Shown here piece by piece: positions 2,562 to 12,103 of a stretch of DNA of 13,641 bases; position 1 is the stretch's first letter, and the number at the start of each line of letters is the position of its first letter. Made by a program: the position numbers and the translations under genes. The stretch is taken from assembly GCA_043818275.1 (NCBI GenBank), contig JBDRFY010000021.1, positions 1 through 13,641 on the forward strand. Direction: 5' to 3'. The notes under the pieces are model-generated. The model was not told the DNA's origin, searched no databases, and saw nothing but the letters and a program-made list of their open reading frames with translations. Source of the DNA: a bacterium. GTDB lineage: Bacteria > Babelota > Babeliae > Babelales > JAUWHS01.

Positions 2562-3701
2562 ATGTTAAAAAAAAATTTATCTTTTTTAATTCTCACATCT
2601 CTTTTTGCGTTAGCAATTTTTGTAGTAACTCAAAAAAAACCTTTTCGTAAACTAAATTTACCCTCAATACATAAAAAAGAAGTTAAAACAGCAAAAGCAA
2701 TAAATAAAGATACTTCGTTTAAAAATCTTCCAGTTGTAAAAATTATTACAACCGGTGGAACAATTGCAGAAAAAATTGATCCTAAAACTGGTGGGGCTGT
2801 TCCTGCTGTATCTGGTCAAGATTTAATTGATGCCGTTCCGGGACTGTCAAAACTTGCATATGTTAAAGTTGTAAATTTTTCAAATATCGACAGTTCACAA
2901 ATGACTCCTGAAATCTGGGCTCGGTTAAGTAAAAAAGTTGATGAAATTTTAAGTGATCCTGAAGTAAAAGGTGCCGTTGTAACTCATGGAACAGATACAA
3001 TGTCTGAAGGTTCTTATTTCTTAGAATTAACATTAAAAAATGATAAACCTGTTGTTTTTGTTGGCGCAATGCGCGATGCTTCTGATTTATCTCCCGATGG
3101 TCCAGCAAATATTTTAAATGCTGTCACACAAGTTTTATCTCCCAACGCGCAAAATTGGGGCGTAACAGTTTCATTAAATCAATACATTAATGCAGCAAGA
3201 GATGTAAGAAAAACACAAACTTCAAATGTTCAAACATTTGATTCAGGCGAAAAAGGTTATCTCGGCTACATTAACATGGGGCAAGTTGTAAGATTTAACG
3301 ATCGGCGCAAAAAACAAAAATTTCCTATACCAAATAAACTTCCTGATGTTGTAATTCTTTCAGATTACGCGGGCTCAGATGGAAGATTTATTCGTCATGC
3401 AGTTGATTCTGGCATTGACGGAATTGTTGTTGAAGCAGTCGGGGCAGGAAATGTTAATGAAAAAATGTATCAGGCAATTAAATACGCATTAGGAAAAAAT
3501 ATTCCTGTGGTTATTACAACTCGGGTTTATCATGGAAAAGTGCTACCTGTTTACGGTGATCTTGGTGGTGGAAAAATACTACAAGACGAAGGGGCAATTT
3601 TAGGTAATGATTTAGTTACTGCAAAGGCCAGATTACTTTTAATGCTTGCAATTCCACAGGCGGGTGGAGATAAAGAAAAATTAAAAAGTTTTTTTGAGTA
3701 A
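2562..3701 (+). CDS. ansB: L-asparaginase (type II-like, N-terminal signal/anchor)
   Basis: Catalytic motifs TGGTIA and HGTDT, plus NIDSSQM, VGAMR, GAGN and KARLLLML. Hydrophobic N-terminus. The ansB rather than ansA label is inferred from the signal/anchor. Confidence 0.9.
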   Translation: MLKKNLSFLILTSLFALAIFVVTQKKPFRKLNLPSIHKKEVKTAKAINKDTSFKNLPVVKIITTGGTIAEKIDPKTGGAVPAVSGQDLIDAVPGLSKLAYVKVVNFSNIDSSQMTPEIWARLSKKVDEILSDPEVKGAVVTHGTDTMSEGSYFLELTLKNDKPVVFVGAMRDASDLSPDGPANILNAVTQVLSPNAQNWGVTVSLNQYINAARDVRKTQTSNVQTFDSGEKGYLGYINMGQVVRFNDRRKKQKFPIPNKLPDVVILSDYAGSDGRFIRHAVDSGIDGIVVEAVGAGNVNEKMYQAIKYALGKNIPVVITTRVYHGKVLPVYGDLGGGKILQDEGAILGNDLVTAKARLLLMLAIPQAGGDKEKLKSFFE

Positions 3702-3804: not shown

Positions 3805-5787
3805 ATGAGTAAAAAAAAATTTTTCTATTTTGCCTTAATACCAATTTTAGCCTACTTATTTATAAGTTTTTTTATCGTCAAAGATTACGGAATCATGATT
3901 GATGATCCGGAACAATTTGGAGTTGGACATAAAAATCTTAATTATTATGTAACAGGAAAACTTGATTATAAAAATGATGAACCTGAAATTAAAGATCATC
4001 CCAATTTTTATAATTATATCGTAAAAACCAGACCCCATCATGTCTGGCCATTTACCCCAATGCTATCTGCGGCCACATGTAAACTATTTTTTGAAAAACT
4101 AAATTGCCTTCCTCCAATTCCAGCACATCATTTTATAATTCCAATATTAACCGCTATGTTTTTTTTATTATTTTTCTTTTTTGTTCGCAGATGGTGGGGA
4201 AATCTTGCTGGTATATGCGCAATTTTACTTTTAATGACCTTGCCCAGATTTTTTGGACATAGCTTATCAAATATAAAAGATTTGCCTGAAGTTTTATTCT
4301 TCAGTCTAACAATTATGTATTTTATGGATTGGTATTTATGGAACCGCTCTAATCCTTCGACTTCGCTCCCTACTTCGCCAAGGCTTCGCAGGGCAGGCAG
4401 GACGAGCGGAATTCAAAGTTTTTTTTCAAACATAATAAATAAATTTAAATATCAACCAAAGAACAAAACTTTTACATCAAAAACAAAAAACCCCGCCCCG
4501 CTCGTCCTCACTTCGACTCGCTTACACTCGATCAGTATGAGCGCAAGACATCTTCGGTCCGATCATTCTGAGGGTAGCACAGCGAAATCGAAGAAAGGAT
4601 ATCAACATACAAAATATCTTTACCTATCATTTCTTTTCTTCGGCCTTGCATTTGCAACTAAAGCTGATGCTATTTTTGTAATTCCAATTCTTGGTTTGTG
4701 GTTATTACCAGATTTGATAAATGGGTTAATAAAAAACGGCTCAATTAAATTGAGAACATTGTTTCATTTTTGTGTTGGTGGATTAATATCTTTTTTCTTT
4801 ATTTTCTTTACCTACCCTCAACTTCAACCATGGTACTACAAAAGTAATTACGATTTTTTAGTTCAGGCTCCAAAATTTATTTATACTCTTGCGCGTTATG
4901 TTATTGGAATTGGTGGCGATATTGATTCAAGATGGAATCTTTATTCAATTAAGCAAATTTTTTATACAACACCTGTTTTAATACTTTTATTTTTTACAAT
5001 CGGATTTTTGTTCTTACTTACAAACCTAAAACAAAAAAAAAGCTCCGCTCGCCCTGCCTGCCCTGCGAAGCCTTGGCGAAGTAGGGAGCGTAGTCGAAGG
5101 GTAAACCTTATTTTGCTTATCTGGCTACTATTACCCATCTTGCGCCACTGCATGCCAAAAGTAAATCACTACGATGGCTTGCGGCATTTTATGGTTTTTA
5201 TGGTTCCATTTATAATTATTACAACAATTGGAATTATAAATTTTGCTAAATTCATTTCGAAAAAATTAAATTTAAAACAAAACATAACTGAAATAATTTT
5301 TCTAATTATTGTGCTCATACCAAATATTTATTCCGTAATCACACTACATCCATATCAAACAACTTTTTATAATAAAATTATTGGGGGGCTTGGTGACGCG
5401 CAAAAAAAAGATATTCCATTTAGCTCTGATTATTGGTTTAATTCAAATCTGGAACTTGGTCAATGGATCAATAAAAATGCAAAACAAAACGCAAATATTC
5501 ACGGACCATTTATTGATTATTATTTAAACCCTTCGAGATGCTCCCAGCTTCACCAAGGTTTCGCAGGGCAAGCAGGGCGAACGGGAGATTTAAAAATAAT
5601 TAATTTAGATAAAAAAGATGAAATTCCCCAAAATACATACATTGTTGAAATACCAAGACGCTGGTATCGGTTAGATCAAAAAATCCCATTAATTTCTGAT
5701 CTAATTCCTGAAATTAAAAATTTAGAAATTGTTTATCAAATCAAAAGACAAAACGGAATAATCGGAACAATTTATTATAAAAAATAG
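3805..5787 (+). CDS. ArnT/PMT-like (GT-C fold) membrane glycosyltransferase carrying palindromic repeat insertions in an intact frame
   Basis: Acidic DDPE motif after the first TM, PRFFGHSLSNIKD, GLAFATK, YDGLRHF and many TM segments. Four Arg/Ser/Pro-rich stretches coincide with GC-rich repeats. Confidence 0.85.
   Translation: MSKKKFFYFALIPILAYLFISFFIVKDYGIMIDDPEQFGVGHKNLNYYVTGKLDYKNDEPEIKDHPNFYNYIVKTRPHHVWPFTPMLSAATCKLFFEKLNCLPPIPAHHFIIPILTAMFFLLFFFFVRRWWGNLAGICAILLLMTLPRFFGHSLSNIKDLPEVLFFSLTIMYFMDWYLWNRSNPSTSLPTSPRLRRAGRTSGIQSFFSNIINKFKYQPKNKTFTSKTKNPAPLVLTSTRLHSISMSARHLRSDHSEGSTAKSKKGYQHTKYLYLSFLFFGLAFATKADAIFVIPILGLWLLPDLINGLIKNGSIKLRTLFHFCVGGLISFFFIFFTYPQLQPWYYKSNYDFLVQAPKFIYTLARYVIGIGGDIDSRWNLYSIKQIFYTTPVLILLFFTIGFLFLLTNLKQKKSSARPACPAKPWRSRERSRRVNLILLIWLLLPILRHCMPKVNHYDGLRHFMVFMVPFIIITTIGIINFAKFISKKLNLKQNITEIIFLIIVLIPNIYSVITLHPYQTTFYNKIIGGLGDAQKKDIPFSSDYWFNSNLELGQWINKNAKQNANIHGPFIDYYLNPSRCSQLHQGFAGQAGRTGDLKIINLDKKDEIPQNTYIVEIPRRWYRLDQKIPLISDLIPEIKNLEIVYQIKRQNGIIGTIYYKK
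4344..4410 (+). repeat. Palindromic REP-like element, copy 1 (forward), inside the GT CDS
   Basis: CCGCTC...GAGCGG closing stem. 57-bp core 4354-4410 is 65% GC (37/57) and 55/57 identical to the reverse complement of 5044-5100. Confidence 0.9.
4498..4600 (-). repeat. Composite REP-like element, copy 2 (inverted partner of copy 1), inside the GT CDS
   Basis: CCGCTCGTCCT (4498-4508) is the exact reverse complement of 4399-4409. AAGGAT (4595-4600) mirrors ATCCTT (4352-4357). Contains further CTTCG/CGAAG sub-elements. Confidence 0.75.
5044..5100 (-). repeat. Palindromic REP-like element, copy 3 (reverse), inside the GT CDS
   Basis: Reverse complement of copy 1 with 2 mismatches; translated here as SARPACPAKPWRSRERSRR. 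Confidence 0.9.
5530..5585 (+). repeat. Diverged REP-like element, copy 4 (forward), inside the GT CDS
   Basis: About 47/57 identical to the reverse complement of copy 3 by hand alignment; translated as PSRCSQLHQGFAGQAGRTG. Confidence 0.85.
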
Positions 5788-5818: not shown

Positions 5819-7882
5819 TTACGCAGCAACTGAAGACTCAACAACCTTATTATTATTCATCGCCTCATGAGCTTCTCTTAAAATGTCACTATCAAAACCG
5901 GATTGACGTAATAAATCTAGAGCTATTTTTTGATCAGTAAGACCTTGCTCAAGTTTGTATGTAAATTTGATATTTCCATATTCATCTTTATTTACATAAA
6001 CTTTGTAATTTTTACATACCCCATCGGTATCTTTTTCCAGTCTGCCTAATTGCGTAACAAAGTGTGTTGCGTTTATAGATAAATGATGATTTAATCTGGA
6101 GAGTTTTTTCAAAATACCATAAGCGGCAGCTGAACCTTCTTCAGGATTTGTTCCTGTAAAAACTTCATCCATTATTATAAAACTAAACTGATTTGGTTGT
6201 AGTTCTGAAACCATATCGATAAGTTTTTTTGCTCTATTCATTTCGGCCTGAAATAGTGATTCCTGACCAACCGCATCAGTAATATTTAGATATGTATTCA
6301 TCAAAGTAAACGGTGTCAATTTTATTTGATTTGCCGGAGCGATACCAAAAGATTGCGCAAAAATAAGATTGATTGTTATAGCCTTAAGAACCGTAGACTT
6401 ACCACCAGCATTAGGCCCCGTTAAAATAATATTTCTGTTGGTTTTCCCAATTTCAAGATTATTTGTAATAACTTTATCTACATCTAATTCCGGATGCCAA
6501 AATTCTTTAATTTCAAATGTCGGTTTATCTAATTCCAGATATTCAACAAATGAGTATTTTGCATTTTCTTTTTTTTCGTATTTTTTGAAAAGCTTTGCAA
6601 TAGACATATAAGCGTCAAGTCGCCCAACAGATCTTAACTGACTAATCAATTGATCCTTAACTTCATACATTTTTTTGTAAGCCGCCAAAATTTTTCCATT
6701 CAAACTAAACATGGAATATTTCTTTTTAAATGTTCTGGTACTTAAAGTTTTAAAAAACTTATTAACTTCTACATCATCTTGAACTAAACCTGGTAACATA
6801 TTTTTAATCACATCATAATTCAAAGTTTTATTTGAAATATTTTGAACAGAACCTTCCAACTCTGCAACGCAAGACATTTTATTATGAACCCATTTAATTC
6901 TTTCATAATTAGCATTTGCATTGTCATAAATATTATTTACACCAAACATTTTAAACGCGCCGTTAAACAATAAATTAAAACCAAGAGCCCAGGCTCCAGC
7001 TCTAGCCGCAACACTGGCGACAGAAACCCAGGGGGCCCCTAAAGGAATAGCAATAGTCCAACCAAACCAAAAAACAGTTCCCATGGAAGCAATTGAAGGA
7101 ACAGCAGCAGGAAGTATTTGCATATTAATAATATCATGCTTAAATTCCATTGGGGTTTGTTGATTATTCACCCCCTTAAACATTTTATTATTAAAATATA
7201 ATTCGCGTGAAAAATCTGACAATTTACCGTCCTCAAGCACTTTCCAAAACCACGCCAATTCATGTTCATTTTTTTTAATTTGATCCAACTCTTTTTCTAA
7301 AAAATTAAATAACTTTTCGTCTTTAACTAATAAACGAATAATTTCTTGTCGTTTTTTTAATTCCTGAATATTTGCGGTAGGTAAAAACAATATTTTTTGT
7401 AACTCAATTTTTCCCGCTGTAGTAACCGTATTATCAATATGCTTAAATAAATTTTTATTCAAATCAGACTTATCGCCACAAAAAACATTAAGATCATTAA
7501 AAACATTTTTATTAAGAATATTTTGCTCTTTTTTCGTTGAAACAATATTTTTATTACCAGCCTCTCTACCAGAAAGAATGTGATAAAAAAGACGTAATGT
7601 TTCTACGCTACCTATTTTAATTGGTTTCTTTTTAAATTCCTGACCAACTTTTAATTTTGAATTTTCATTAATAACTTTCATCTGAGCTTCAAGTTCTTCT
7701 TTTTCCTGAGCAGCCAAAGTTGGCAAATATAAATCAGCAATATCATTGTAATAATCAAGTCCCTTTTCACTATTTGCTAACTGCGCAACTCCAGCCGGAT
7801 TAATAGATAAAACATCTTTGGCAAATAAACAAGCAAAAGCAAAGACAATAACGTTTTTAAATTTTTTAGAAAAAACAAACAT
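5819..7882 (-). CDS. MutS-related ATPase (domain V plus partial core) with signal peptide and internal hydrophobic segment; paralog 1
   Basis: Walker A GPNAGGKST, ESLFQAEM, Walker B IIMDEVFTGT, ATHF. No recognisable mismatch-binding domain I. Hydrophobic N-terminus. Confidence 0.85.
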   Translation of the reverse strand: MFVFSKKFKNVIVFAFACLFAKDVLSINPAGVAQLANSEKGLDYYNDIADLYLPTLAAQEKEELEAQMKVINENSKLKVGQEFKKKPIKIGSVETLRLFYHILSGREAGNKNIVSTKKEQNILNKNVFNDLNVFCGDKSDLNKNLFKHIDNTVTTAGKIELQKILFLPTANIQELKKRQEIIRLLVKDEKLFNFLEKELDQIKKNEHELAWFWKVLEDGKLSDFSRELYFNNKMFKGVNNQQTPMEFKHDIINMQILPAAVPSIASMGTVFWFGWTIAIPLGAPWVSVASVAARAGAWALGFNLLFNGAFKMFGVNNIYDNANANYERIKWVHNKMSCVAELEGSVQNISNKTLNYDVIKNMLPGLVQDDVEVNKFFKTLSTRTFKKKYSMFSLNGKILAAYKKMYEVKDQLISQLRSVGRLDAYMSIAKLFKKYEKKENAKYSFVEYLELDKPTFEIKEFWHPELDVDKVITNNLEIGKTNRNIILTGPNAGGKSTVLKAITINLIFAQSFGIAPANQIKLTPFTLMNTYLNITDAVGQESLFQAEMNRAKKLIDMVSELQPNQFSFIIMDEVFTGTNPEEGSAAAYGILKKLSRLNHHLSINATHFVTQLGRLEKDTDGVCKNYKVYVNKDEYGNIKFTYKLEQGLTDQKIALDLLRQSGFDSDILREAHEAMNNNKVVESSVAA

Positions 7883-8048: not shown

Positions 8049-10055
8049 TTAAGCTGCATTTAAAATATTATAAGCTTCACTTAAAATCTCATCTTCAAAA
8101 CCAGACTCTTGTAATAAATCAAGAGCGATAGCCTGATCTGTTACACCATCTTCCCATTTATATGGATACAAAATTTTACCATTTTCATCTTTATTAACAA
8201 AAACTTTATAATTTTTAAAAATTCCATCTGTATCTTGTTCAAGTCTGCTTAATTGTTCAACAAAATGTGTCGCATTTACAGATAAAAGATTAGTAAATCG
8301 TGAAAGACGTTTCAAAATACCATATGCTCCAGCAGCACCCTCTTTAGGATTTGTCCCCGTAAAGACCTCATCCATAATTATAAAACTAAATTCACTCGGT
8401 TTTAAATTTGCAATCATATTAATAAGCTTTTTGGCTCTATTCATTTCTGCCTGAAACAAGGACTCTTTGCCAATGGTATCTGTAACATTTAAATAAGTAT
8501 TAATAAGAGCAAATGGCGTTAATTTCATTTGAGAAGATGGTGCAATACCAAAAGATTGAGCCAAAATAAGATTTATTGTAATCGCTTTAAGAATAGTCGA
8601 TTTACCACCAGCATTTGGTCCTGTCAAAATAATATTTCTATTACCTAAACCAAGCGCAACATTATTTGTGACCACTTTTTTTGGATCCAATTCAGGGTGC
8701 CAAAAATTATTAATTTCAAAATATGGTTTATCAGACTCAAGATATTCAACAAAACAATATCTTGCATTTTCATTTGTCACATGTTTTTTATAAAGTTTTG
8801 CGATAGAAAGATAAGCATCAAGTTCACCAACAGCCTTTAATTGATCTATCAATAAATCTTTAATTTCATACATTTGTTTGTAAGAAGCTAAAATTCTTCC
8901 TTGAAAACTAAACACTGAAGGCTGGCCTTTAAATGTATTCTTATTTAATAAATTTAAAAACTTTTTAGCTTTTCTATCATTTTGATTAAGATGAGAAAGT
9001 TTTTTCATGATTGGGGTATAATTTTGCATTTTTTGAGCAATATCCTGAACGGCATTTTCCAACATTGCAACATCAATCATTTTTTGTTGAATATTTTTAG
9101 CGGTTATAATTTTATCTTCTATTTGATCCAATATGTTTGGAGCGCCGAATGCCTTTGAAATCACAGAACCAATAAGGAGAGCAAATAAATTAACTGCTAG
9201 ATATCCATACAATCCAACCAAGCTTACACCATTAATAAATTCAGCCTCATAAGCAACTATTCCTCCAGCAGCAATTACTCCAAACAATAAGGGTAAAATC
9301 AAACCCAAATTTAAAACATCATGACAATATTCCATTCCAAGAGAACTTTTATTCGCGCCTTGTAAAAATGATTTATTGAAATATAATTTCTCGAAATAAT
9401 TGTAAATTTCTTTTTCCAATGATTTAAAAAACCATGAGAACTCAGATTCTACCTTTTTAATCTTTTTTAAATATCCATCTAAATCATTAAATAATTTTGT
9501 ATCTAATATAAGCTTACGAATAATTTCTTGTCGCTGTTTTAAATCTGAAATATTTGTTGTTGGCTGATATAACATTTTTTGCAATTGAATCTTGCCAATC
9601 TTTGTCTGAGCATAATTTAATTTAGAAAAAAGATGATCTTGCAAAGATGATTTATCACCACAAAAAGCGTTAATATCACCTAGCGTATTTTCATTAAGAA
9701 CTTTTGTCATCACATTAGTTTTCGGATCCTTTTGTGATGCAAACATTTTGTACAAAAGCCGTAACGCTTCCACATTTCCAATACCTGCCAATTTAAAATC
9801 TTTACCATGTCCTTCTTTTAATTCTTTATTTAATTCATTGATTTTTTCAATTTCTTCGGACTCTCTCATTTCCTCTTTGACCAAAGAAGGTAAATATAAA
9901 TTCGCAAGTTCATTATAATGTTCAGCTTCGTATTTAATTACATCTTTTTTCGCCTTAGCAAGAGAAGGAGAAATCAAATTCAAACATAATAAAATTGAAA
10001 ATACCGTTACTATTTTTCGTTTATGATTTCTGACAAAAAACAATTTAAATTGCAT
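8049..10055 (-). CDS. MutS-related ATPase with signal peptide and internal hydrophobic segment; paralog 2
   Basis: Same motifs as paralog 1 (GPNAGGKST, ESLFQAEM, IIMDEVFTGTNP, ATHF) and collinear along its length (LYLP, FCGDKS, GKIxLQK, FWHPELD). Confidence 0.85.
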   Translation of the reverse strand: MQFKLFFVRNHKRKIVTVFSILLCLNLISPSLAKAKKDVIKYEAEHYNELANLYLPSLVKEEMRESEEIEKINELNKELKEGHGKDFKLAGIGNVEALRLLYKMFASQKDPKTNVMTKVLNENTLGDINAFCGDKSSLQDHLFSKLNYAQTKIGKIQLQKMLYQPTTNISDLKQRQEIIRKLILDTKLFNDLDGYLKKIKKVESEFSWFFKSLEKEIYNYFEKLYFNKSFLQGANKSSLGMEYCHDVLNLGLILPLLFGVIAAGGIVAYEAEFINGVSLVGLYGYLAVNLFALLIGSVISKAFGAPNILDQIEDKIITAKNIQQKMIDVAMLENAVQDIAQKMQNYTPIMKKLSHLNQNDRKAKKFLNLLNKNTFKGQPSVFSFQGRILASYKQMYEIKDLLIDQLKAVGELDAYLSIAKLYKKHVTNENARYCFVEYLESDKPYFEINNFWHPELDPKKVVTNNVALGLGNRNIILTGPNAGGKSTILKAITINLILAQSFGIAPSSQMKLTPFALINTYLNVTDTIGKESLFQAEMNRAKKLINMIANLKPSEFSFIIMDEVFTGTNPKEGAAGAYGILKRLSRFTNLLSVNATHFVEQLSRLEQDTDGIFKNYKVFVNKDENGKILYPYKWEDGVTDQAIALDLLQESGFEDEILSEAYNILNAA

Positions 10056-10223: not shown

Positions 10224-10301
10224 GGGGCTGTAGCTCAGTTTGGTTAGAGCGTCCGCCTGTCACGCGGAAGGCCGCGAGTTCGAGTCTCGTCAGCCCCGCC
10301 A
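10224..10301 (+). tRNA. tRNA-Asp(GTC)
   Basis: Acceptor stem GGGGCTG/CAGCCCC, D-arm TAGCTCAGTTTGGTTAGAGC, anticodon arm TCCGC-CTGTCAC-GCGGA, T-loop TTCGAGT, encoded CCA end. Confidence 0.97.
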
Positions 10302-10338
10302 TACTACGCTCCTACGGAGCTTCGTATGGCTTCTCCAA
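10298..10338 (+). repeat. REP-like hairpin overlapping the tRNA 3' end (left arm of an inverted pair)
   Basis: GCCATAC/GTATGGC outer stem and GCTCC/GGAGC inner stem; CTACGC...GCTTCG core. Confidence 0.7.
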
Positions 10339-10380
10339 TTTCGCCAAAAAGGAAAAGATTGATAGAAATGTTAACTTAGC

Positions 10381-10452
10381 TTGGAGCGGAGTATGCCCTT
10401 CGAAGCTAGGATTATTCGAAGCTTTAGCTAAGAAGAATCTGCGTAGTAGGGC
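10381..10452 (-). repeat. Nested REP-like hairpin upstream of the GIY-YIG gene (right arm of the inverted pair)
   Basis: Reverse complement reads GCCCTACTACGC...AGCTTCGAAGGGC...CTCCAA, homologous to the left arm GCCATACTACGC...AGCTTCGTATGGC..CTCCAA. An inner copy ATTATTCGAAGCTTTAGCTAAGAAGAAT lies at 10411-10438. Confidence 0.7.
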
Positions 10453-10478
10453 TAATTGAATTTTCCCAGGAAACAATT

Positions 10479-10721
10479 ATGTTTTATGTATATCTACTTA
10501 AATCAATAAGAACTTCAAATAAAACTTATATTGGTTACACAACTAATCTTAAAGAACGAGTCAAAAAACATAACGAAGGAGGCTCCATTTACACCAAAAA
10601 TGATCATCCATGGGAATTAATAGCATATATAGCTCTTAATAGTGAAGCTAAAGCAAAATCAATGGAAAAATATTTAAAAGAAGGTTCAGGCCACGCCTTT
10701 GCTAAAAAACGTTTTTGGTAA
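10479..10721 (+). CDS. Small stand-alone GIY-YIG nuclease (SLX1/YhbQ-like)
   Basis: FYVYLL...YIGYT, catalytic Arg in LKERVKKHN, YTK..PW and conserved Glu in MEKYLK. Confidence 0.9.
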   Translation: MFYVYLLKSIRTSNKTYIGYTTNLKERVKKHNEGGSIYTKNDHPWELIAYIALNSEAKAKSMEKYLKEGSGHAFAKKRFW

Positions 10722-10754: not shown

Positions 10755-11162
10755 TTATTTTTTACTTTTGACTTTATAAACTTTTGGCTCAGCTCTAGAA
10801 ATTATATCTACACAATAATCTTGATCTCCGGCAATATAATGTTTTAAATCTGGATTTATCGCTAAAAGTATCCCCTCTGCTTCTTCATCTAATTTTTTTA
10901 AATATTCAGAATCTATTGCTTCAGTTACAAGGCCTCCTGTTAATTCTTCATCTACATGATGATCTAGACGACGCCCCTCATCAGAAACCCTATAATCCAT
11001 AACTGCCCCCCCAAAATCAAAAACAATATCATATTTATCGTCTTTATTGTTATGAAATACTATTTTAAATCCATTTTTATCTGTTAGAATCTGTGATATA
11101 AAATATTCAAAACTCTGCGGTTGCCCCAGTTTATCGGGAAGTTTAAAATCTACATATTTCAT
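10755..11162 (-). CDS. Probable immunity protein cognate to the upstream toxin
   Basis: ATGA overlap with the toxin stop. Acidic 135 aa. The YRVSDEG..RL, SEYL and HY...VDIIS..EP pattern resembles, from memory, CdiI-type immunity proteins. Confidence 0.7.
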   Translation of the reverse strand: MKYVDFKLPDKLGQPQSFEYFISQILTDKNGFKIVFHNNKDDKYDIVFDFGGAVMDYRVSDEGRRLDHHVDEELTGGLVTEAIDSEYLKKLDEEAEGILLAINPDLKHYIAGDQDYCVDIISRAEPKVYKVKSKK

Positions 11163-12103
11163 TTAACGTTATACCTTATTTTAATGTAATCATGTTTTCC
11201 TAACTGTATTTCTATCGTTGGCTTATTACCTGACTTTTTACTACTAAAACCTCTTCTTATTATAGGCTCGCCATTTTTAGTTTTACTAATTTGAATTGGA
11301 CCATTTTTTGTATTTTTATATTCAACATCATTTCCATCCCTAAGTTTATCAAAATCTTCTTGAGACTGGCTTTCTCCAGCATCCTTTTCCCAAACATCTG
11401 CTTCCCCTCCAGCGCCTCGATCAGGTGGTTCTTTCGCATCTATTAATACATCATCCAATCCATCGGTAGTTCGTCTTTTATTTTTACTTTTTTTCTTCTT
11501 GCTAAAATGATGATCTATTGCTTTAACTGTTGCAACCGTTGCCACCACAAATGTAGCTTCAACAACCTTTTCTAAAATTGGATACAATAATATTGAAAGT
11601 TCTATTGCAAAATTATGAACTAAAACATTAGTTCCATTTTCTGATTTAATTAAAAAAAGATTTCCGTCTTCAATTGAAATTTCATACAAATCTATTGGAT
11701 CAGGTAAATCATCAATTTCAACTAGTCTTATTTCCAGGTTGCCTTTTTCCGGAGAAAATAACTTATCCCCCGCTTTTAATTCTTCAGCAGGAATGAACTT
11801 TTTAATCCGTCGATTATAAACTTTCTGTTTCAGGCCAAAAGCAAATAATTCCGAATCTGTTTCTACCAATACAATCTTTTTGATTCTTTTTTTATTTATC
11901 TCTTCGATCTTACATGATTTTTCTATTTTTTTTCTTGGAATGTTATAAACAAGTAATTGATCTCCAACTTTTAACTCGTCAACTCGCTTATAAACCCCTT
12001 CGTCAACAAGAACTCGTGTATCTGGAAGTAAGCCTGAAAATAAATTGTTTGTGATTAAACAGAGAAAAAGAACAAATAAAATCTTTTTTGATTTATTCAA
12101 CAC
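11159..12103 (-). CDS. Polymorphic toxin: signal peptide, Hint domain, hydrophobic linker and C-terminal putative RNase (CdiA-CT-like) domain
   Basis: GTG start with AGGAG RBS. Hint domain GLLPDTRV..RVDELKVGD..AEELKAGD..LYEISIE..VLVHN (aa 24-164). C-terminus EDFDKL..RGFSS..KPTIEIQ..KIRY. Confidence 0.8.
   Translation of the reverse strand: MLNKSKKILFVLFLCLITNNLFSGLLPDTRVLVDEGVYKRVDELKVGDQLLVYNIPRKKIEKSCKIEEINKKRIKKIVLVETDSELFAFGLKQKVYNRRIKKFIPAEELKAGDKLFSPEKGNLEIRLVEIDDLPDPIDLYEISIEDGNLFLIKSENGTNVLVHNFAIELSILLYPILEKVVEATFVVATVATVKAIDHHFSKKKKSKNKRRTTDGLDDVLIDAKEPPDRGAGGEADVWEKDAGESQSQEDFDKLRDGNDVEYKNTKNGPIQISKTKNGEPIIRRGFSSKKSGNKPTIEIQLGKHDYIKIRYNVK
11612..12034 (-). other. Hint (intein-like) autoprocessing domain within the toxin
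   Basis: Block A-like start with Gly in place of Cys1; terminal His-Asn at 11617-11612, followed by Phe. Confidence 0.8.

Follow-up and report, generated by a model that had tools for sequence, protein, structure and literature searches.

In-frame nested hairpin repeats in a membrane glycosyltransferase gene of a TM6-group bacterium and their association with small GIY-YIG nuclease genes

At three sites the glycosyltransferase gene (positions 3805-5787, + strand) has in-frame inserts that consist of a short hairpin, H1; in three of its copies a second hairpin, H2, is nested. With a probability of roughly 60%, these inserts are gene-less offspring of two cassettes that pair a hairpin with a GIY-YIG nuclease gene.

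The window, a stretch of 13,641 nt (contig JBDRFY010000021.1), comes from an AT-rich bacterium of the TM6 group. A preliminary description had reported an uninterrupted 660-aa reading frame invaded at four positions by one 57-bp element of 65% GC. The frame is indeed uninterrupted, and the three 57-mer copies have GC contents of 0.65, 0.67, and 0.61 in a gene whose core has 0.286. As described, the copy at 5044-5100 is the inverse of the one at 4354-4410, the two being identical at 55 of 57 positions, and the third (5530-5584) has diverged, with 82% identity to the 57-mer. The anatomy had to be revised. What had been taken for one 57-bp element is a 27-nt hairpin (H1) within which a 30-nt hairpin (H2) is nested, and the gaps in orthologues, which do fall at the repeats, show three insertion sites, with 4354-4600 forming a single insert.

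Site 1 holds one insert of 85 additional amino acids (4354-4600), consisting of a 57-mer copy, an AT-rich spacer of 87 nt, and the unit at 4498-4600. The first of these, unit A, comprises H1 at 4354-4410 and a degenerate outer arm at 4344-4353, with the head motif and stem read on the - strand, and encodes residues 180-202; its nested H2 (4368-4397, - strand, 30 nt) has the same sequence as the H2 of unit C. The spacer (4411-4497, no strand assigned, GC 0.21) is translated in frame, does not occur in the same-genus sister genome G001, and has a similar peptide in the orthologue P0002. Unit B (4498-4599, no strand assigned) looks, on inspection by eye, like a head-to-head pair of degenerate H1 copies (~4498-4543 and ~4560-4599); it has no match to the strict H1 pattern, and its 109-nt stretch folds with a z score of -2.4 against shuffles. 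Compared with the G001 orthologue, sites 2 and 3 add a net 22 and 17 aa, respectively. Unit C at site 2 (5044-5101, + strand, residues 414-433) is an H1 with H2 nested at 5057-5086, and unit D at site 3 (5529-5586, - strand, residues 575-594) is a diverged H1 with H2 nested at 5543-5572, the latter differing at five positions from the H2 of units A and C.

The copies are read in different frames and orientations and yield unrelated peptides, the three quoted in the preliminary description being correct. Sequence and predicted model place the inserts in two inter-helix loops and the C-terminal soluble domain, in agreement with its claim of loops after transmembrane helices or the soluble tail. 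On the model the inserts map to low-confidence loop segments, with pLDDT below 50 only at residues 184-205, 212-264, 414-424, and 576-594, values that would be expected regardless, as the alignment there is almost without depth. The insert peptides are likely disordered passengers tolerated by the enzyme, as far as the model can tell.

The H1 pattern matched 117 times in this genome (G000) and in none of three shuffles, with 0 matches in 1.04 Mb of G001; the exact pattern occurred 68 times in the whole genome of G000 vs 0 times in that of G001. On neither strand did the 57-mer fold better than its shuffles (three copies, z -1.0 to +0.9), and its hairpin nature is drawn from covariation of the terminal pair of H1 (T-A 45, C-G 40, T-G 4, C-A 1) and not from folding energy. 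Close H1 pairs were inverted in 23 of 24 cases, and 17 of the 24 form gene-less H1-spacer-H1 units in the orientation of the gene cassette, with recurrent sizes of ~133 and 157 bp. No consistent target-site duplication or fixed end was found for H1, with 20 dimers showing short chance-level direct repeats only; G001 is too diverged to fix the insertion junctions. One possible decayed duplication of 24 nt was seen by eye in a GT4 gene on contig C3. Rfam at gathering scores found tRNAs only in the window and nine loci, and a sequence search of the PDB with a family profile produced one weak, unrelated match.

Within reading frames, 56 of 179 repeat copies (31%) were located, compared with 87% coding sequence, which is a depletion. 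These 56 copies were spread over 46 ORFs, and their 53 sites were distributed as 40 genes with one, five genes with two, and one gene with three sites. The density in the glycosyltransferase gene had been called unusually high and turned out to be only mildly unusual (probability of any gene with at least three sites, 0.044). The frame was intact in all 33 copies inside genes with a spanning G001 orthologue, a count that excludes one row for a spurious antisense ORF of this same glycosyltransferase gene. The same repeat families also occur in homologues of gltX, leuS, alaS, pheT, glmS, murB, lpxB, dnaK, and mnmE. The earlier comparison with Rickettsia palindromic elements (RPEs), as a dispersed repeat inserted in frame in tolerant loops, is thus supported, but the proposal of a repeat that is coding-compatible by design is not. 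The absence of stop codons in five of six frames is correct and unremarkable, with 16.5% of 5000 dinucleotide and 21.6% of 5000 mononucleotide shuffles equalling it. Open frames are at chance level, copies are depleted in ORFs, and the orientation bias of in-ORF copies (39:17) goes with the orientation in which H1 has more open frames (2.36 vs 1.75). A preference for H1 core lengths that are multiples of three in ORFs was also considered and rejected (15/17/11 by remainder). The preserved frame would thus reflect selection and not design. One step, the nesting of H2, does tend to keep the frame.

All 26 nested H2 copies sit at one position inside H1, and 24 of them measure 30 or 42 nt, a multiple of three, so that adding H2 keeps the frame. 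An H2-like hairpin also lies 3' of at least 16 of 44 tRNA genes. In the window, an H2-type hairpin at 10299-10328 (- strand, folding z -3.3) takes its first bases from the CCA end of tRNA-Asp (10224-10301, + strand). A second, longer H2-like hairpin was seen by eye at ~10391-10452. A 4-bp target duplication for H2 was considered and rejected: the four bases that follow the host motif are not constant (13/7/3/3 of 26) and stand at the head of free and tRNA-adjacent H2 copies too, so they look intrinsic to H2. Units A and C contain an identical H2 inside H1 hosts that differ, and the same holds for one pair on contig C75. Near-and-identical H2 pairs were observed twice, with 0.085 expected by permutation (p 0.002), in a test that consists of these two pairs only; two further near-identical H2 pairs lie on different contigs.

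Outward-facing H1 copies bracket two of the six small GIY-YIG genes in G000, and one H1-clade nuclease gene of this genome lies at 30799-31071 on contig C75. Among 55 loci of homologues, H1 was found on at least one side in 37 of 38 loci of close homologues, from several phyla, and on both sides in 22 of 38, with many of these 38 loci from Legionellales/Coxiellaceae and eight from one genome, so that they are not independent. Controls gave H1 in 2 of 32 windows further out and in 0 of 17 distant homologues. All 38 H1-flanked proteins fell in one clade of 44 rows (SH-aLRT 94), separate from three SRM-flanked proteins (SH-aLRT 96), in a tree based on only 80 columns; as a proxy, this grouping points away from cd10448, the family of the Ssn nucleases. 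The best PDB matches of the H1 nucleases were the UPF0213 proteins 1zg2 and 1ywl. Of 60 relatives, 15 have a close homologue (E <= 1e-20), and H1 was present in 13 of these vs 11 of the other 45. Two genomes with such a homologue had zero exact H1 matches, and the homologue in G001 is truncated and unflanked.

A second clade of four G000 proteins (SH-aLRT 97) is encoded next to tRNA genes. Its member in the window (10479-10721, + strand, 80 aa, Pfam PF01541, E 5.6e-14) is a candidate partner of H2, a link seen in G000 and at one G001 locus. In viral contigs, nucleases of this clade gave two partial matches only. The composite anatomy and the tie of each hairpin to its own small GIY-YIG clade go beyond the preliminary description.

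H1 and H2 were likely spread by these tiny GIY-YIG nucleases. By analogy to SsnA, each nuclease would bind its own hairpin in single-stranded DNA and nick beside it, and host repair would copy hairpins or hairpin pairs to new places. H1 expanded in this lineage and was not found in the sister genome searched, and selection would retain only in-frame copies in tolerant loops. H2 occupies the fixed position in H1 as well as tRNA CCA ends, its step of 30 or 42 nt keeping the frame, and resident inserts would then be rewritten by further insertion and by local copying between inverted neighbours.

In another reading, which we consider rather unlikely, single-strand nucleases domesticated by the host use the hairpins as recognition sites, in the way that SsnA uses NTS. 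The hairpins would then spread passively, through recombination, template switching, and gene conversion, with no mobility driven by a nuclease. SsnA was shown to restrict incoming, transforming DNA, with no transposition or movement of repeats shown for it (PMC11893778). Passive spread would also fit the identical H2 in inverted neighbours, where conversion may act, and the missing target-site duplication in H1 dimers. Moreover, of the ten relatives with at least ten H1 matches, five (G012, G018, G037, G043, and G045, 93-98% complete) are without a close GIY-YIG homologue. However, the copy numbers of H1 among relatives are patchy and burst-like (0 to 121), which looks like enzyme-directed mobility, and one Gammaproteobacterial genome contains eight near-identical H1-gene-H1 units. 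The gene-less units in cassette orientation and the single insertion point of H2 also speak against passive spread.

Mobilisation of the repeats by a RAYT/IS200-type Y1 transposase, on the model of REPINs and with the GIY-YIG genes as bystanders, is quite improbable. G000 has six Y1_Tnp matches, one of them flanked by H2 copies, and the dimer layout is REPIN-like, but H1 occurs within 450 nt of none of the six and unrelated palindromes flank several of them, while GIY-YIG homologues are bracketed by H1 across phyla.

The product of the host gene is a membrane glycosyltransferase of GT-C fold, ArnT/PMT_2-like by its predicted model, with sugar transfer as the predicted activity. The model (pTM 0.81) aligned with ArnT 5f15 at Z 26.2 (rmsd 6.6, 426 residues aligned), with Z values of 22-26 to ArnT, Pmt4, AglB, ALG12, and STT3, the best structure matches being tied at 11-13% identity. 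All 18 Foldseek matches shown at E <= 0.001 were GT-C enzymes. GT-C glycosyltransferases use a lipid-phosphate donor for sugar transfer. Two aspartates of the first loop, D27 and D33, do not vary in the homologue alignment and may have a catalytic role, as would be expected for GT-C enzymes. The insert-free orthologue P0004 matches PMT_2 (E 5.3e-9) and homologues contain PF13231, while the Pfam search gave no match for the insert-bearing 660-aa protein, in which the site 1 insert falls within the PMT_2 span.

The gene could be dispensable and under relaxed selection, the inserts then marking early decay in place of tolerated loops. It has the most sites of any gene in G000, an orthologue in only 1 of 60 relatives, and longer branches in the insert-rich P0001 and P0002 (0.10) than in the insert-free P0004 (0.055). 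Against this, the frame is intact across at least five hairpin units, the protein core shows a dN/dS of 0.115 over 503 codons (an average over both lineages), family-invariant residues are retained, and the same insert families occur in the homologues of gltX and the other genes named above. We regard decay as very unlikely.

Orthologues present the sites in several states. No insert occurred at any of the three sites in 15 of 17 aligned homologues, and in G001 the DNA has nothing inserted at any of them. In P0002, bare H1 peptides, of which 10 and 11 residues are exact H1 translations, stand where units A and C sit, and by peptide match a single bare H1 lies at the position of unit B. The P0003 insert shares its ends with that of unit D and differs in its interior. 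P0002 and P0003 are known as proteins only. DNA for P0003 and P0005 was not found in metagenome contigs, and back-matching their insert peptides to known DNA gave 6-residue matches only, their repeat origin being read by eye. A homologue search repeated with P0004 added no close orthologues. Because the inserts that two orthologues carry at shared sites differ in their interiors, resident inserts were likely rewritten in place, to judge from sequence comparison. The best tree places P0004 within a four-protein group, which would require loss or recombination; a simpler order of insert gains was not rejected (AU p 0.30).

That the inserts are adaptive new loops altering substrate, partner, or regulation would agree with sites 1 and 2 being filled in three related proteins of 82-86% core identity. 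It is nonetheless highly improbable, as the peptide differs per orthologue and is read in different frames, P0004 lacks all three inserts, and, as a weaker point, the inserts are predicted to be disordered. An assembly artefact, with repeats of other organisms spliced into the contig, has a negligible chance: the assembly is of metagenome type with 4.2% contamination, and other organisms in the sequencing runs often carry the repeat, but repeat peptides occupy the same sites in two orthologues that come from other datasets, and chimeras would not retain the frame in all 33 of 33 cases. In run X1, a 349-nt contig equals 5033-5381 without difference, covering unit C and its right junction with 11 nt on the left; among the run contigs, none extends over the whole gene or reaches 31 nt beyond an insert at both ends.

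The closest published system is Ssn/SRM, in which single-domain GIY-YIG nucleases occur with NTS/SRM hairpins (Chenal et al. 2025, PMC11893778). As far as that account goes, it resembles the present case in a gene of ~90 aa with a hairpin on either side that is directional and has an unpaired head, in many gene-less copies, and in enrichment in host-associated bacteria, and an IS-like layout of hairpin-GIY-YIG-hairpin units was proposed there, not tested. In contrast, the nucleases flanked by H1 have UPF0213 proteins as their structural matches and fall outside the group of SRM-flanked proteins, there are two pairs of hairpin and nuclease with one hairpin nested in the other, and 31% of copies lie in ORFs vs 2% of NTS in N. 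meningitidis (PMC11893778). The published degenerate SRM pattern had 0 matches in the window, G000, and 1.04 Mb of G001. RPEs (Ogata 2000, 2002, via PMC10969869 and PMC3733652) are likewise palindromes that sit in frame within unrelated genes, many of them with housekeeping functions, in a bacterium whose genome is small and AT-rich. RPE-1-type elements are described as ~150 bp with a conserved peptide (PMC10969869), whereas those found here are 27-57 nt, composite, and read in several frames on both strands.

Di Nocera et al. (2013, PMC3733652) described CGTC and GTAG REP superfamilies and REPtrons. CGTC REPs, defined by a CGTC/TGTC/CCTC tag, an 8-9 bp stem, a 4-5 nt loop, and a short tail, are similarly short tagged hairpins in inverted dimers with intragenic copies, including double insertions in uvrA/uvrB, clusters coding 43-82 aa, and tRNA synthetase targets; no transposase was found for them (PMC3733652). 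Compared with that textual description, the H1 head (CGYTC) has one extra base and its stem is interrupted by GA mismatches; the partner is GIY-YIG and not RAYT, and fixed-position nesting of a second hairpin family was not seen for REPs in the available text of PMC3733652. Short search strings had no match in four of its supplementary files. Unlike REPINs with their RAYTs, H1 flanks none of the six Y1_Tnp matches and H2 is near one. MITEs, which derive from IS elements, have defined terminal inverted repeats and a fixed target-site duplication; H1-spacer-H1 units recur here, and a fixed duplication was not found in the 20 dimers. No published description of H1, H2, or nested GIY-YIG hairpins was found in what was mainly open literature; the supplements of PMC11893778 may list H1-like motifs. 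Intragenic repeats are a known phenomenon, and both repeat/nuclease pairs described here are distinct from the published pair.

The movement of palindromes that code for protein, RPEs and CGTC REPs among them, has been a standing question since 2000. Tentatively, two GIY-YIG clades outside the published Ssn family may mobilise two hairpins, with H2 as a hyperparasite homing on H1 and tRNA CCA ends and resident H1 as a landing pad with a 30- or 42-nt step. Protein loops would then grow and be rewritten where they stand, giving many phyla a way to new protein sequence that needs no transposase. With two further nuclease/hairpin pairs and a fixed insertion point, mobility becomes testable with enzymes of 80-90 aa and short oligonucleotides, and this locus offers an orthologue series from empty to bare H1 to H1 plus H2. 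For annotation, such inserts abolish domain matches, as for PMT_2 in this gene, and give unrelated proteins spurious peptides in common. If the reading is true, site-specific single-strand nucleases would be gained as tools.

The glycosyltransferase gene of the window (3805-5787, + strand, 660 aa; protein P0001) carries real repeat insertions. The coordinates, identities, GC content and peptides of the preliminary description were correct when re-checked on the window sequence, and its in-frame repeat insertion stood, but its four positions were reduced to three sites by alignments to 17 homologues and to DNA from G001, a sister genome in the same genus. Gaps in the orthologues coincided with the repeats, and G001 was empty at all three sites. 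Site 1 adds 85 aa (unit A at 4344-4410, an 87-nt AT-rich spacer, and unit B at 4498-4599), site 2 adds 22 aa (unit C, 5044-5101), and site 3 adds 17 aa (unit D, 5529-5586). The G001 orthologue P0004 (577 aa) has no insert at these sites, yet it carries ~25 additional residues immediately past site 3. An assembly artefact is opposed by a contig of sequencing run X1 identical to 5033-5381 with zero differences, although no contig of the sequencing runs fully bridged any insert, and is opposed more strongly by the orthologues P0002 and P0003, which come from other sources and bear inserts at the same sites. Three sites are the genome maximum for one gene, but the density once called unusually high is only mildly unexpected (p = 0.044). 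The stop-free frames, previously regarded as a special property, are at chance level, matched by 16.5 and 21.6% of 5000 shuffles, and the 57-mer folded no better than shuffles.

A Pfam search of P0001 gave no match. In the insert-free P0004, PMT_2 was matched at residues 110-231, a span that site 1 splits. One homologue, 48% identical to the host protein, carries the label candidate division TM6, which makes Babelota/Dependentiae the likely affiliation of the organism. The AlphaFold model, built from 18 sequences (pTM 0.81), has a predicted GT-C fold, matching ArnT (Z 26.2, rmsd 6.6, 426 aligned) with Pmt4, AglB, ALG12, and STT3 near behind. As proposed earlier, sites 1 and 2 map to inter-helix loops and site 3 to the C-terminal soluble domain. 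The P0004 counterparts of the first two are short Lys-rich loops, likely cytoplasmic by the positive-inside rule. In the model, pLDDT below 50 is confined to residues 184-205, 212-264, 414-424, and 576-594, which are the inserts; with almost no alignment depth in the insert columns, this is a weak hint of disorder. The dN/dS of 503 core codons was 0.115, averaged across both lineages. Directly upstream lies an asparaginase gene (2562-3701, +) with a likely signal peptide, and further upstream a metallo-beta-lactamase-fold protein (1362-2063, -).

The 57-mer is a composite of 27 and 30 nt, in which the hairpin H2 is nested in the hairpin H1 (CCGYTCRYCCTGAG-loop-TCGAAGGR). The terminal pair of H1 covaries (T-A 45, C-G 40, T-G 4, C-A 1). 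H2 consists of a four-base head and a stem of 6 bp that contains an internal loop, and this stem varies in a compensating manner among 44 copies, which had been picked for pairing. Nested H2 was found in 26 copies inside H1 or a related hairpin, always at the same position and in the same orientation, with a length of 30 or 42 nt in 24 of them. In the window's genome, G000, at least 16 of 44 tRNA genes likewise have an H2-like hairpin starting at their CCA end, as do at least 14 of 27 in G001, by a pattern that misses some. By eye, unit B is a pair of degenerate H1 copies, head to head, and the host gene therefore holds about five H1 units, three of them bearing H2.

The components of the 57-mer are dispersed throughout G000 (1.33 Mb, 92 contigs, GC 0.308, 94% complete). 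A loose H1 pattern occurred 117 times, compared with none in three shuffles and none in 1.04 Mb of G001 (136 of 136 contigs, long ones limited to 20 kb); on whole genomes, the exact pattern gave 68 matches in G000 and 0 in G001. Exact matches numbered 121 and 83 in the relatives G023 and G038, with distinct dominant loop variants in each. Among 179 H1 and H2 matches, 56 (31%) were located in ORFs of at least 100 aa called within this analysis, in a genome that is 87% coding; a further 119 fell between ORFs and 4 at edges. In all 33 cases with a site-spanning G001 orthologue the G000 frame was intact; one spurious antisense ORF was excluded, and 145 matches had no spanning orthologue. The orientation of in-ORF copies (39:17, p = 0.005) favours the one with more open frames (2.36 vs 1.75 for H1). 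This pattern is the mark of a selection filter. Repeat-bearing genes, named through Pfam matches of 31 G001 orthologues, include homologues of gltX, leuS, alaS, pheT, mutL, uvrC, glmS, murB, lpxB, dnaK, mnmE, the tsaD family, and several sugar-pathway genes. Two kinds of gene-less H1-spacer-H1 units of ~133 and ~157 bp also recur in G000 (contig:position C6:25444, C27:23225, C30:6240, C50:25486, and C71:3852 in a first group; C6:7691, C13:1677, C14:2180, C30:6590, C50:1495, and others in a second). Their spacers are related, AT-rich and palindromic, and the units share the orientation of the H1 pair that brackets GIY-YIG genes.

The insert peptides of P0002 at sites 1 and 2 agree exactly with translations of bare H1 across 8-11 residues. 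P0003 carries other inserts at these sites, and at site 3 one with the ends of D and a different interior, their repeat origin being judged by eye on the protein alignment. The core tree joined P0001 with P0003 (96/86) and P0002 with P0004 (85/72), and the AU test did not reject a clade of the three insert-bearing proteins (p = 0.30). Recombination or precise loss is a possible source of this distribution; the most parsimonious account has few gains and subsequent rewriting in place, rather than repeated independent insertions. The H2 of A is identical to that of C and unique among the 26 nested copies, in carrier H1s that differ. A pair on contig C75 likewise has identical H2 in differing H1, giving two of seven near pairs against 0.085 expected (p = 0.002). 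Because P0002 is bare at the places of both A and C, H2 was likely added once and then locally copied, or supplied twice by one donor, as judged from two pairs and from P0002 at the protein level. Further homologues show a C-terminal peptide matching an H2 translation over 7 residues (P0006), 29 inserted residues at a fourth site (P0005, residues ~383-412), and Arg/Pro-rich stretches in the C-terminal part (P0036), possibly more repeat insertions in this family.

G000 encodes six small GIY-YIG proteins besides UvrC and has six Y1 transposase matches. H1 faces outward on both sides of two of the small GIY-YIG genes, the other four sit behind tRNA genes with H2-type hairpins, and H1 was found near none of the six Y1 genes. 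A candidate complete H2 element lies in the window at 10224-10721, with tRNA-Asp (10224-10301), an H2-type hairpin at its CCA end, another H2-like hairpin, and a GIY-YIG gene of 80 aa (10479-10721). RAYT-like Y1 genes flanked by palindromes of their own occur at C59:425-1025, C60:13535, C76:3903, and C36:2823, and H2 copies are also present within this third repeat family.

At 55 homologue loci, a strict head motif was found upstream in 22, downstream in 28, and on both sides in 19. The looser H1 pattern occurred on at least one side in 37 of 38 close homologues and on both in 22, compared with 2 of 32 control windows further out and 0 of 17 distant homologues; H1 also stood in the wrong orientation on 18 flanks. 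Hosts came from Pseudomonadota, Chloroflexota, and Nitrospirota, with 8 loci from one genome. The best case of recent full-cassette mobility is a Gammaproteobacterial genome with H1-GIY-YIG-H1 units in eight near-identical copies at separate positions (L067, L069, L071, L073, L075-L077, L083). In a tree of 70 proteins and only 80 columns, all 38 H1-flanked proteins fell within one 44-row clade (SH-aLRT 94), and three proteins flanked by SRM, the hairpins of published Ssn nucleases, and the four tRNA-adjacent G000 proteins lay in separate clades (96 and 97). Structure matches of the H1 nuclease were to UPF0213. Of 60 relatives, 15 have a close homologue (E 1e-20 or better), and 13 of these contain H1, as do 11 of the 45 that lack one (Fisher p = 3e-5, inflated by kinship). 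However, 5 of 10 genomes with at least 10 H1 matches have no close homologue, and two gene-carrying genomes have zero matches. H1-free G001, counted as lacking a close one, has a truncated homologue lacking H1 flanks (L233:692-900, E 3.5e-19). The H2-clade protein was found in 36 of the 60, as protein presence only.

The window also encodes tandem paralogous MutS domain III/V proteins of 687 and 668 aa (5819-7882 and 8049-10055, -) with hydrophobic N-termini and ~75% identity across a 300-nt stretch; a domain search gave no mismatch-binding domain match. A 314-aa protein (11159-12103, -) that combines a pretoxin HINT domain with a short C-terminal region, and an overlapping 135-aa acidic gene (10755-11162, -), look like a polymorphic toxin/immunity pair.

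The repeats combine in-frame insertion, composite anatomy, a fixed nesting point, lineage-specific expansion, and association with two nuclease clades. By analogy with SsnA, the nucleases would nick single-stranded hairpins. Host repair would then finish the hairpin copy, selection would retain copies in tolerant loops, and inserts would be rewritten in place. Neither a target-site duplication nor a precise element end was resolved in 20 dimers or the G001 comparison. That these are two new hairpin elements driven by nucleases, of which one parasitises the other, is a tentative reading, with a probability of roughly 0.3. In-frame palindromes within genes are already known from RPE (PMC10969869), as are double insertions and clusters of 43-82 aa (PMC3733652) and hairpin-bracketed GIY-YIG genes (PMC11893778). 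Unlike the last, H1 and H2 do not fit the SRM pattern, and their associated nucleases group apart from SRM-flanked proteins. A literature search of incomplete coverage, with the Ssn paper supplements outside it, found no description of H1 or H2 hairpins. To these systems, the locus adds an orthologue series and the likely local copying of H2.
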